A stretch of 64,000 nt of DNA from Escherichia coli (GTDB lineage Bacteria; Pseudomonadota; Gammaproteobacteria; Enterobacterales; Enterobacteriaceae): NCBI RefSeq assembly GCF_003334355.1, contig NZ_QOWP01000011.1; one strand, 5' to 3'. Under the pieces are notes generated by a model, which did not search any database, had not been told where the DNA came from, and saw only the letters and a list, made by a program, of their open reading frames with translations. This document shows, in pieces, positions 51,826 through 55,502 of this stretch. Position numbers and translations under genes: made by a program. Numbering within the stretch: the stretch's first letter is position 1; each line of letters begins with the position of its first letter.

Positions 51826-52155
51826 TTTCTTGCGTTATTTTCGGCACCTTTTATGTAGCGAAGGTGCCGGAATATATTCTCTTTTGTTACTTATTTCTAT
51901 ACCGTGCACAATATTTTTATCCCTCATATTTATAGGGTAAATTACCTGTAAAGTAGTGTCTAATTACCCGCCTCGCAAACTCCAGTTTTCAAATATCTAT
52001 TTCAGGTCAAAAGATTGAATTATTCACTGGAGACGATTCGTAAATTCGCTGGATTTTTGACTAAAGTTTCTTTAGGATTTGTCTCATCGTATGATTAATT
52101 ACACCAATCGTTCAACGTCTTGCTGATAAGTGATGGCGATTATATGAGGTTAGCA

Positions 52156-52284
52156 ATGCCTTCTGGAAATCAGGAACCCCGCCGCGATCCTGAATTAAAA
52201 CGTAAAGCCTGGCTGGCGGTTTTTCTTGGTTCTGCACTTTTCTGGGTGGTTGTCGCACTGCTGATTTGGAAAGTGTGGGGATAA
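52156..52284 (+). CDS. ymiA: small membrane protein (42 aa)
   Basis: ATG preceded by RBS gagg; single hydrophobic helix; not in the ORF track (below cutoff); stop lies 2 nt before the yciX start. Confidence 0.55.
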   Translation: MPSGNQEPRRDPELKRKAWLAVFLGSALFWVVVALLIWKVWG

Positions 52285-52286
52285 CT

Positions 52287-52454
52287 ATGGTCGGTCAGGA
52301 GCAACTGGAGTCGTCACCATTATGCCAGCATAGTGACAATGAAACAGAAACGAAACGGGAATGTTCCGTCGTTATTCCAGACGACTGGCAACTAACATCG
52401 CAGCAGCAAGCCTTTATAGAACTGTTTGCTGAAGATGATCAGCCGAAACAATAA
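52287..52454 (+). CDS. yciX: small protein (55 aa)
   Basis: In-frame ATG at 52287 within ORF 52266..52454. Confidence 0.6.
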   Translation: MVGQEQLESSPLCQHSDNETETKRECSVVIPDDWQLTSQQQAFIELFAEDDQPKQ

Positions 52455-52826
52455 TTATCATCATTCTTATTACCCATTTTTAATGAATTAAAGGGCTTTT
52501 AATACACCGCAGCAATAACAGCTTGAGTTATCTCAACACAAAATAATAACCGTTAAGGGTGTAGCCTATGATCAACACAAATATGAAATATTGGTCCTGG
52601 ATGGGCGCGTTTTCTCTGTCGATGCTCTTCTGGGCCGAACTCCTCTGGATCATTACTCACTGATCCTTGACCCCGCTGCGGCGGGGTTGTCATTTGCTTT
52701 GCCACAAGGTTTCTCCTCTTTTATCAATTTGGGTTGTTATCAAATCGTTACGCGATGTTTGTGTTATCTTTAATATTCACCCTGAAGAGAATCAGGGCTT
52801 CGCAACCCTGTCATTAAGGAGGAGCT

Positions 52827-55502
52827 ATGTCGTCAACCCTACGAGAAGCCAGTAAGGACACGTTGCAGGCCAAAGATAAAACTTACCACTACTACAGCCT
52901 GCCGCTTGCTGCTAAATCACTGGGCGATATCACCCGTCTACCCAAGTCACTCAAAGTTTTGCTCGAAAACCTGCTGCGCTGGCAGGATGGTAACTCGGTT
53001 ACCGAAGAGGATATCCACGCGCTGGCAGGATGGCTGAAAAATGCCCATGCTGACCGTGAAATTGCCTACCGCCCGGCAAGGGTGCTGATGCAGGACTTTA
53101 CCGGCGTACCTGCCGTTGTTGATCTGGCGGCAATGCGCGAAGCGGTTAAACGCCTCGGCGGCGATACTGCAAAGGTTAACCCGCTCTCACCGGTCGACCT
53201 GGTCATTGACCACTCGGTGACCGTCGACCGTTTTGGTGATGATGAGGCATTTGAAGAAAACGTACGCCTGGAAATGGAGCGCAACCACGAACGTTATGTG
53301 TTCCTGAAATGGGGAAAGCAAGCGTTCAGTCGGTTTAGCGTCGTGCCGCCAGGCACAGGCATTTGCCATCAGGTTAACCTCGAATATCTCGGCAAAGCAG
53401 TGTGGAGTGAATTGCAGGACGGTGAATGGATTGCTTATCCGGATACACTCGTTGGTACTGACTCGCACACCACTATGATCAACGGCCTTGGCGTGCTGGG
53501 GTGGGGCGTGGGTGGGATCGAAGCAGAAGCCGCAATGTTAGGCCAGCCGGTTTCCATGCTTATCCCGGACGTAGTGGGCTTTAAACTTACCGGTAAATTA
53601 CGTGAAGGTATTACCGCCACAGACCTGGTTCTCACTGTTACCCAAATGCTGCGCAAACATGGCGTGGTGGGGAAATTCGTCGAATTTTATGGTGATGGTC
53701 TGGATTCACTACCGCTGGCGGATCGCGCCACCATTGCCAATATGTCGCCAGAATATGGTGCCACCTGTGGCTTCTTCCCAATCGATGCTGTAACCCTCGA
53801 TTACATGCGTTTAAGCGGGCGCAGCGAAGATCAGGTTGAGTTGGTCGAAAAATATGCCAAAGCGCAGGGCATGTGGCGTAACCCGGGCGATGAACCGATT
53901 TTTACCAGTACGTTAGAACTGGATATGAATGACGTTGAAGCGAGCCTGGCAGGGCCAAAACGCCCACAGGATCGCGTTGCACTGCCCGATGTACCAAAAG
54001 CATTTGCCGCCAGTAACGAACTGGAAGTGAATGCCACGCATAAAGATCGCCAGCCGGTCGATTATGTTATGAACGGACATCAGTATCAGTTACCTGATGG
54101 CGCTGTGGTCATTGCTGCGATAACCTCGTGCACCAACACCTCTAACCCAAGTGTGCTGATGGCTGCAGGCTTGCTGGCGAAAAAAGCCGTAATTCTTGGC
54201 CTCAAGCGGCAACCGTGGGTCAAAGCGTCGCTGGCACCAGGCTCGAAAGTTGTTTCTGACTATCTGGCAAAAGCGAAACTGACACCGTTTCTCGACGAAC
54301 TGGGGTTTAACCTTGTGGGATACGGTTGTACTACCTGTATTGGTAACTCTGGGCCGCTGCCCGATCCTATCGAAACGGCAATCAAAAAAGGCGATTTAAC
54401 CGTCGGTGCAGTGCTGTCCGGCAACCGTAACTTTGAAGGCCGTATCCATCCGCTGGTTAAAACCAACTGGCTGGCCTCGCCGCCGCTGGTGGTTGCCTAT
54501 GCGCTGGCGGGAAATATGAATATCAACCTGGCTTCTGAGCCTATTGGTCATGATCGTAAAGGCGATCCGGTTTATCTGAAAGATATCTGGCCATCGGCAC
54601 AAGAAATTGCCCGTGCGGTAGAACAAGTCTCCACAGAAATGTTCCGCAAAGAGTACGCAGAAGTTTTTGAAGGCACAGCAGAGTGGAAGGAAATTAACGT
54701 CACACGATCCGATACCTACGGTTGGCAGGAGGACTCAACCTATATTCGCTTATCGCCTTTCTTTGATGAAATGCAGGCAACACCAGCACCAGTGGAAGAT
54801 ATTCACGGTGCGCGGATCCTCGCAATGCTGGGGGATTCAGTCACCACTGACCATATCTCTCCGGCGGGCAGTATTAAGCCCGACAGCCCAGCGGGTCGAT
54901 ATCTACAAGGTCGGGGTGTTGAGCGAAAAGACTTTAACTCCTACGGTTCGCGGCGTGGTAACCATGAAGTGATGATGCGCGGCACCTTCGCCAATATTCG
55001 CATCCGTAATGAAATGGTGCCTGGCGTTGAAGGGGGGATGACGCGGCATTTACCTGACAGCGACGTAGTCTCTATTTATGATGCTGCGATGCGCTATAAG
55101 CAGGAACAAACGCCGCTGGCGGTGATTGCCGGGAAAGAGTATGGTTCAGGCTCAAGCCGTGACTGGGCGGCAAAAGGTCCTCGTCTGCTTGGAATTCGTG
55201 TGGTGATTGCCGAATCGTTTGAACGAATTCACCGTTCGAATTTAATTGGCATGGGCATCCTGCCGCTGGAATTTCCGCAAGGCGTAACGCGTAAAACGTT
55301 AGGACTAACCGGGGAAGAGAAGATTGATATTGGCGATCTGCAAAATCTACAACCCGGTGCGACGGTTCCGGTGACGCTTACGCGTGCGGATGGTAGCCAG
55401 GAGGTCGTACCCTGCCGTTGTCGTATCGACACCGCGACGGAGTTGACCTACTACCAGAACGACGGCATTTTGCATTATGTCATTCGTAATATGCTGAAGT
55501 AA
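52827..55502 (+). CDS. acnA: aconitate hydratase A
   Basis: 891 aa; RBS aggagg; aconitase family Cys ligands. Confidence 0.97.

Follow-up and report, generated by a model that had tools for sequence, protein, structure and literature searches.

The ymiA-yciX gene pair upstream of acnA in Escherichia coli: conserved small-protein genes with a tightly kept junction and possible translational coupling

The region 52156-52454 of the sequence analysed here (a 64,000-nucleotide stretch of an Escherichia coli contig, NZ_QOWP01000011.1, hereafter the window) is the 5' part of a known and conserved small-protein operon, ymiA-yciX-ymiC, which occurs in E. coli and its relatives. Of 5426 complete E. coli genomes, 5422 were found by megablast to carry the region, with ymiA, yciX, ymiC, and acnA annotated there, and the annotations of RefSeq and of K-12 MG1655 (b4522, b4523, and b4741) place ymiA at 52144-52284, yciX at 52287-52454, and ymiC at 52568-52663, all on the plus strand, as are the promoter-region block, leader, junction, and STnc180 match described below. 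Sequence, gene order, and coordinates are the same as in the K-12 operon, and the window locus is that locus, with no differences. On the 5' side, the pair is preceded by the end of cysB and a 320-nt spacer (layout examined at approximately 52100-52850), and on the 3' side yciX is followed by a 31-codon open reading frame (ORF; 52568-52663), a terminator-like hairpin, and the start of acnA at 52827. A first-pass annotation, made from the sequence alone, had named the two genes ymiA and yciX and placed them upstream of acnA, and both megablast and RefSeq show that the names and the position are right. Since RefSeq and K-12 annotations are found at matching coordinates, the first-pass finding is a correct rediscovery of annotated genes. 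The pair is a known and ordinary locus, and because its genes, operon structure, and stress induction are already in print, it has little importance beyond annotation hygiene; the few modestly new points are indicated below where they arise.

Comparative analyses were based on 81 loci, namely the window and 80 species representatives from more than 25 genera. In a tblastn survey, matches to CysB and AcnA flank ymiA in nearly all of 83 loci, and the same holds for distant relatives. The first-pass annotation had named a lack of conservation of the frames in close relatives as an outcome that would refute the pair, and both frames proved to be conserved (ymiA in 81 of 81 loci and a yciX-like frame in 80 of 81), with coding signatures in both. 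Judging from the pattern of sequence divergence, ymiA is clearly a real protein-coding gene. Three candidate start codons (TTG at 52120, ATG at 52144, and ATG at 52156) lie in frame in one and the same ORF, which ends at TAA 52282-52284. The ATG at 52156 opens a 42-codon ORF (MPSGNQEPRRDPELKRKAWLAVFLGSALFWVVVALLIWKVWG) with a hydrophobic stretch of 21 residues, and this frame (52156-52284), supported by alignments, codon-position divergence, and ribosome-binding site (RBS) energy, forms the conserved core of the gene: it is intact in all 81 loci, and its Met is invariant in an alignment of 18 protein sequences. Pairwise differences at the first, second, and third codon positions of the core are 0.167, 0.102, and 0.448, respectively, which is a third-position excess, and pN/pS across the 81 loci is 0.20 versus 1.45 and 1.86 in the shifted-frame controls. 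The protein matches the NCBIfam model NF000536 with 96.8 bits (cutoff 30), profile positions 1-42 corresponding to residues 5-46, and its homologues carry the Pfam domain PF22868. A basic KRKAW segment is followed by the 21-residue hydrophobic run, the arrangement of a basic stretch and a single hydrophobic segment that characterizes the YmiA family, and the invariant residues in the alignment follow the pattern KRKAW...W...W. YmiA, with its 42-46 aa, is a small protein of the inner membrane that crosses the membrane once and has a cytoplasmic N-terminus. Its translation has been documented previously by start-site profiling, parallel reaction monitoring (PRM) mass spectrometry, and a GFP fusion; a targeted mass spectrometry study of 2025 reported approximately 1000-3000 copies of the 46-aa protein per cell by PRM, and GFP-YmiA was localized to the membrane in a preprint on small proteins under low Mg2+ (2024-25; hereafter the low-Mg2+ preprint).

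The first-pass annotation had described a 42-aa hydrophobic ORF with a good RBS. The ORF, its hydrophobicity, and the GAGG motif at 52146-52149 (6 nt upstream of the ATG at 52156) are all present, but the length does not stand for E. coli, in which a 46-aa product is supported. The annotated coding sequence (52144-52284) rests on RefSeq, NF000536, start mapping by tetracycline-inhibited ribosome profiling (TetRP), a mass spectrometry peptide, and Onc112 profiling. The RefSeq product has 46 aa and the N-terminus MRLAMPSG. TetRP mapping selected the ATG located 12 nt upstream of the 42-aa start, with replicate signals of 58, 30, and 26 versus 0, 32, and 37 at the downstream ATG, and the same paper reported the tryptic peptide LAMPSGNQEPR, which can be obtained from the longer form only. 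Onc112/retapamulin profiling in the Weaver preprint likewise indicated MRLAMP as the likely site of ymiA initiation, and the 42-aa form corresponds to an older annotation in the style of Hemm 2008 that is four codons short for E. coli; compared with K-12, the shorter start is therefore the older annotation and the 46-aa start the current one. From an evolutionary point of view, the 42-aa start and its GAGG (positions -10 to -7) are the sole start and RBS retained in 81 of 81 loci, whereas the codon at -4 is ATG in only 57 of them and is ACG, GCG, AAG, or GTG in Kosakonia, Phytobacter, Trabulsiella, Pseudocitrobacter, and others. The NCBIfam model of YmiA has 42 positions, the first of which is the Met of the 42-aa form, and the calculated RBS duplex energy is -6.3 kcal/mol at the 42-aa start versus -4.6 kcal/mol at the 46-aa start. 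In our reading, both starts are usable in E. coli, the 46-aa form being documented there, and the 42-aa core is the conserved YmiA protein. Experiment and evolution thus point to different ymiA starts: the 46-aa start is preferred experimentally in E. coli, whereas the start conserved in evolution is that of the 42-aa form, with its invariant GAGG. This mismatch is another of the modestly new points and matters for the annotation of small-ORF starts in different species.

The second gene, yciX (52287-52454), encodes an acidic soluble small protein of 55 aa, as indicated by annotation, retention of the ORF in 80 of the 81 loci, pN/pS, and AlphaFold2, and the protein encoded in the window shows 100% identity to the product that RefSeq gives for yciX at the locus. 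When a single sequence was searched against 5.8 billion proteins, relatives were found in Escherichia and Shigella only, no family in Pfam or NCBIfam matched YciX, and no relative was found in the PDB. The view that YciX is restricted to Escherichia was nevertheless overturned by tblastn against the 83 loci, in which a yciX frame of 33-50% identity directly follows ymiA almost everywhere, and by profile searches. A profile built from 40 YciX sequences retrieved 172 database proteins, all labelled 'hypothetical protein' and none with a Pfam domain, and the matches include proteins from Kosakonia, Enterobacter, Citrobacter, Salmonella, Trabulsiella, Yokenella, and Dryocola. When 1.84 billion representatives were searched exhaustively by HMM, only 75 YciX clusters were obtained, almost all with members of 50-60 aa. 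Three highly divergent members are located in a topA-cysB-ymiA-like-yciX-like-acnA context, and a fourth, borderline match is not. A family model could be built for YciX, since all homologues that were examined in Enterobacteriaceae are encoded immediately next to ymiA. The name 'protein YciX' is used in Escherichia alone, while the family is in fact Enterobacteriaceae-wide with unnamed homologues; this wide extent, together with the invariable juxtaposition to ymiA, is one of the modestly new points. With regard to structure, AlphaFold2 (run with the YciX alignment) gave a disordered chain in which helix 38-46 alone was confident. YciX is mostly disordered, and conservation is confined to a short helix motif in its C-terminal part, IPxxWxL(T/S)xxQ(Q/R/K)xFI(D/E)xF, encoded at about 52374-52430.

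It might be argued that yciX is non-coding: either an ORF that arose by chance within the 3' untranslated region that follows ymiA, or a segment of a regulatory RNA. The restriction of single-sequence hits to Escherichia and Shigella and the lack of a Pfam or NCBIfam family would agree with this, as would the N-terminal half of the frame, which is nearly neutral (pN/pS of 0.71) and yet stays open; in addition, direct detection of the YciX protein was not found in the literature searched. However, 80 of 81 loci retain the ORF at a conserved length of 49-59 aa (56 in most cases), with an ATG start in 79 of these 80, and its C-terminal half shows a third-position excess (differences of 0.237, 0.159, and 0.498 by codon position) and a pN/pS of 0.28, as compared with 1.49 and 1.88 in the shifted frames. 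Moreover, W34, L36, Q40, F43, and I44 are invariant among 40 species, the profile finds 172 family members, and the distant members that were sampled share the genomic context. A non-coding yciX therefore appears extremely unlikely. Two loci lack a full-length frame while ymiA and ymiC are intact: in the type strain of Salmonella enterica subsp. arizonae (L062:2636-2760) an internal deletion in yciX removes the motif, and in one E. coli locus (strain 4, L003:762-884) a premature stop leaves a 40-aa product.

As the first-pass annotation had noted, the 42-codon ORF ends 2 nt before a 55-codon ORF: TAA at 52282-52284 is followed by CT and then by the ATG at 52287, whose frame ends at 52454. The junction, GGGG A TAA CT (52277-52286), comprises an RBS-like GGGG within the Trp-Gly codons of ymiA, the stop codon, and the 2-nt spacer. 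In the loci that have yciX (n = 80), most often 2 nt separate the stop of ymiA from the start of yciX (54 loci); gaps of 0, 1, 3, and 4 nt occur in 3, 13, 7, and 3 loci, respectively. These five gap sizes, together with the occurrence of all three relative frames, show that insertions and deletions occurred at the junction and that the tight spacing was kept each time. By contrast, the spacer between yciX and ymiC varies from 43 to 152 nt. The five nucleotides preceding the ymiA stop are GGGGN in 79 of 81 loci and GGAGC in the other two, in which the last YmiA residue is Ser instead of Gly and pairing with the anti-Shine-Dalgarno sequence is retained. The duplex energy calculated for the yciX RBS is -5.5 kcal/mol in E. 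coli (species median -5.4 kcal/mol), against a window background of -2.2 +/- 2.4 kcal/mol.

Translational coupling of yciX to ymiA by termination-reinitiation is plausible, and it is the reading that we moderately favour, since the gap is 0-4 nt in all 80 loci with yciX and the yciX RBS lies within the last two codons of ymiA; the coupling proposed by the first-pass annotation was a reasonable suggestion, as the anatomy of the junction is what would be expected for termination-reinitiation. According to this mechanism, ribosomes terminating on ymiA would restart on yciX, whose RBS (GGGG) is built into the final Trp-Gly codons of ymiA, without leaving the mRNA, and the output of YciX would be tied to that of YmiA from a single stress-induced mRNA (PhoQP, low Mg2+). 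Alternatively, the genes may form a compact operon without functional coupling, in which yciX initiates independently at its own RBS; the gap of 0-4 nt would then result simply from selection favouring compact polycistronic mRNAs, or from an RBS that happens to sit in the last codons of ymiA. Short gaps between genes are common in bacterial operons in general. Independent initiation is possible because yciX has a usable RBS of its own, whose duplex energy is close to the values of ymiA and ymiC, and it would also be in line with two more distant relatives, in which the gap is 13 nt and a canonical GAGG lies within the spacer. Furthermore, no conserved structure occluding the yciX start was found, with 0 conserved pairs at the junction by RNAalifold, and a hairpin at approximately 52231-52281 of E. 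coli that would pair the GGGG with upstream ymiA codons is no better than shuffled sequences (z = 0.73) and is not conserved. A masking structure is not obligatory for coupling of the reinitiation type. What speaks against a merely compact arrangement is that the junction has stayed at 0-4 nt through several indels while the yciX-ymiC spacer has drifted from 43 to 152 nt, and that the Gly-to-Ser change in the last codon of ymiA gives GGAG and hence preserves the RBS. We accord independent initiation an appreciable probability, clearly below even. Given that there is no occluding structure, that yciX has its own RBS, and that distant relatives have a 13-nt spacer with GAGG, coupling is something that we infer; no experiment on the dependence of yciX upon ymiA translation was found in the literature searched. 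The conserved 0-4 nt junction offers a cheap, testable case of possible reinitiation from a membrane protein to a soluble small protein.

Several known gene pairs are informative for comparison. The classical coupled neighbours trpE-trpD and trpB-trpA have overlapping UGAUG sequences, and the dependence of downstream translation has been shown experimentally for them. They resemble ymiA-yciX in that only a few nucleotides are involved between stop and start and in that the RBS of the second gene is located inside the coding sequence of the first; they differ in that the trp genes overlap and their dependence is experimental, whereas ymiA and yciX are separated by 2 nt and form a putatively coupled pair. 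Closer in biology are mgtS-mgtT and yriA-yriB of E. coli, which are induced by low Mg2+ and are likewise pairs of small ORFs on one stress transcript with juxtaposed stop and start, and they have been read as co-expressed. However, the two ORFs of each of these pairs overlap out of frame, whereas in E. coli a gap of 2 nt keeps ymiA and yciX from overlapping. At 55 aa, yciX also exceeds the 50-aa cutoff for a 'small protein' used in the mgtS-mgtT and yriA-yriB studies.

A tentative possibility, which we regard as less likely than not, is that YciX is an obligate, Enterobacterales-wide partner of YmiA in an envelope/Mg2+-stress module, often together with YmiC, with the ymiA leader as a site of post-transcriptional control. 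In such a module, the disordered YciX may bind YmiA or a common membrane target via its C-terminal helix (IPxxWxLTxxQQxFIDxF), and reinitiation at the abutting junction may set the YmiA:YciX stoichiometry. Any functional partnership between the two would be putative at this stage. AlphaFold2 modelling of YciX-(G4S)5-YmiA with 45 paired sequences gave a pTM of 0.26 and no confident complex, and the low pTM together with lower confidence in the YciX helix offers no support for a complex. Natural YmiA-YciX fusions (database entries of 91-100 aa) were also considered as evidence for linkage and were rejected as gene-calling artefacts or rare variants. In the Citrobacter 'fusions' (P0220, P0225, and P0239; 99-100 aa), the gene caller had translated an amber stop as Gln, and the DNA (locus L084:460-762, examined for P0220) reads TGG GGG TAG GTT ATG with the TAG stop intact; the E. 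coli 'fusions' occur as single entries or stem from frameshifts or deletions. A different kind of partnership would be a module of the toxin/antidote type, in which YmiA is a membrane toxin that is neutralized by the acidic YciX from the coupled frame. The lag of 8-10 h upon YmiA overexpression, which is abolished by mutation of the start codon, would be compatible with it, and the close spacing of the two genes would set the ratio in which the proteins are made. On the other hand, the locus is a fixed, syntenic part of the core genome between cysB and acnA across the family rather than a mobile element, structure prediction yielded no YmiA-YciX complex, and there was no PADLOC match: none of the PADLOC defence-system models matched YmiA, YciX, or YmiC at E <= 0.1. 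In addition, loss of ymiA by deletion is without phenotype, and the same lag is seen upon overexpression of several small membrane proteins that are harmless. We consider a toxin/antidote role very unlikely.

YmiA and YmiC are among 17 small proteins reported to be induced in the low-Mg2+ preprint, in which ymiA-yciX-ymiC is treated as one PhoQP-dependent operon induced by low Mg2+. In the same preprint, a reporter for the region upstream of ymiA was PhoQ-dependent while the region just upstream of ymiC had negligible activity, GFP-YmiC was located at the membrane, and deletion of ymiA caused no phenotype whereas its overexpression resulted in the 8-10 h lag and longer cells. According to differential RNA-seq, ymiC, or the downstream part of the operon, has no promoter of its own, and in other transcriptome papers yciX is counted with the genes that are associated with Cpx or respond to envelope stress. 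Within the spacer downstream of cysB, an alignment of 29 species revealed a conserved block at 52061-52095, to which a promoter role can be provisionally assigned. It contains CTAAAGTTTCTTTAGGATTTGTC with a perfect 6-bp inverted repeat (CTAAAG-TTT-CTTTAG), and 3' of the repeat follow a near-invariant TTAGGATTT and a -10-like (T/G/C)ATGAT, the candidate -10 hexamer in the window being TATGAT at 52090-52095. A consensus promoter scan gave no call within 52061-52095. A scan with the PhoP-box consensus returned only matches with three mismatches at 52058-52085, the total for the whole window being 207 as compared with approximately 154 expected by chance, and a CpxR consensus scan found no match with two or fewer mismatches in the conserved block; neither scan discriminates. 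Despite the published PhoQ dependence, there is no convincing PhoP or CpxR box in the putative ymiA promoter block by consensus.

Between this block and the 42-aa start lies the ymiA leader or possible N-terminal extension (52096-52155), which includes the TTG at 52120 (54-aa form), the ATG at 52144 (46-aa form), and the GAGG at 52146-52149. The 30-60 nt upstream of the 42-aa start are more conserved than the synonymous sites of ymiA and contain the blocks TGATAAG, CGATTG, and GAGGTTAGC. In the last 11 codons of the leader, differences by codon position are 0.168, 0.187, and 0.152, so that the third position shows no excess. The search for a consensus RNA structure in the leader was negative, and single-sequence folds were no better than those of shuffled sequences. 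Our reading is that these 30-60 nt are conserved as nucleic acid, with neither a coding nor an RNA-structure explanation, and possible roles include the binding of an sRNA or a protein and ribosome standby. Conservation of the leader at the nucleotide level is one of the few modestly new points of this analysis.

Downstream of yciX, the hydrophobic ymiC had been missed in the first-pass annotation. This third small membrane-protein cistron (52568-52663, 31 aa) is supported by annotation, the NCBIfam model NF041484 (66.3 bits, cutoff 42), TetRP, and epitope tagging; published data include a strong TetRP start signal and validation by an epitope tag. It was detected in 70 of 84 sequences scanned (the window and the 83 loci, including three extra E. 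coli copies) and is absent from representatives of the Citrobacter freundii complex and Pseudescherichia. The same region is matched by the Rfam sRNA family STnc180 (RF02079) at 52495-52697 (cmscan, 198 bits, gathering threshold 50, E = 6.6e-43), a match that spans the 3' region of yciX, ymiC, and the terminator-like hairpin at 52668-52689 found by a terminator scan. On the basis of this 198-bit match, the 'sRNA' STnc180 corresponds to the 3' end of the ymiA-yciX transcript, the part in which ymiC lies. It thus belongs to the same transcription unit but covers ymiC and the terminator rather than the ymiA-yciX pair, and what is called an sRNA holds here a validated 31-aa coding frame; STnc180 at ymiC is either a coding or a dual-function RNA. 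As for acnA, its distal promoter P1 was reportedly mapped by Cunningham, Gruer, and Guest in 1997 about 407 bp upstream of the acnA start. P1 would presumably fall at approximately 52420, inside the 3' end of yciX, leaving ymiC within a long acnA leader.

The general remark of the first-pass annotation, that length-filtered ORF calling under-represents small proteins, is correct, and the genes it gave as further examples (yciY, yciG, trpL, and yciZ) all have an annotation in the matching part of K-12. Four small genes were absent from its list, namely ymiC, ymiD, ymiB, and ychT; within K-12 positions 1297100-1347004 (window approximately 14100-64000), ychT (17 aa), ymiD (42 aa), and ymiB (34 aa) are among the further annotated ORFs shorter than 60 aa. 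The K-12 record also has an IS5 copy annotated near oppA.
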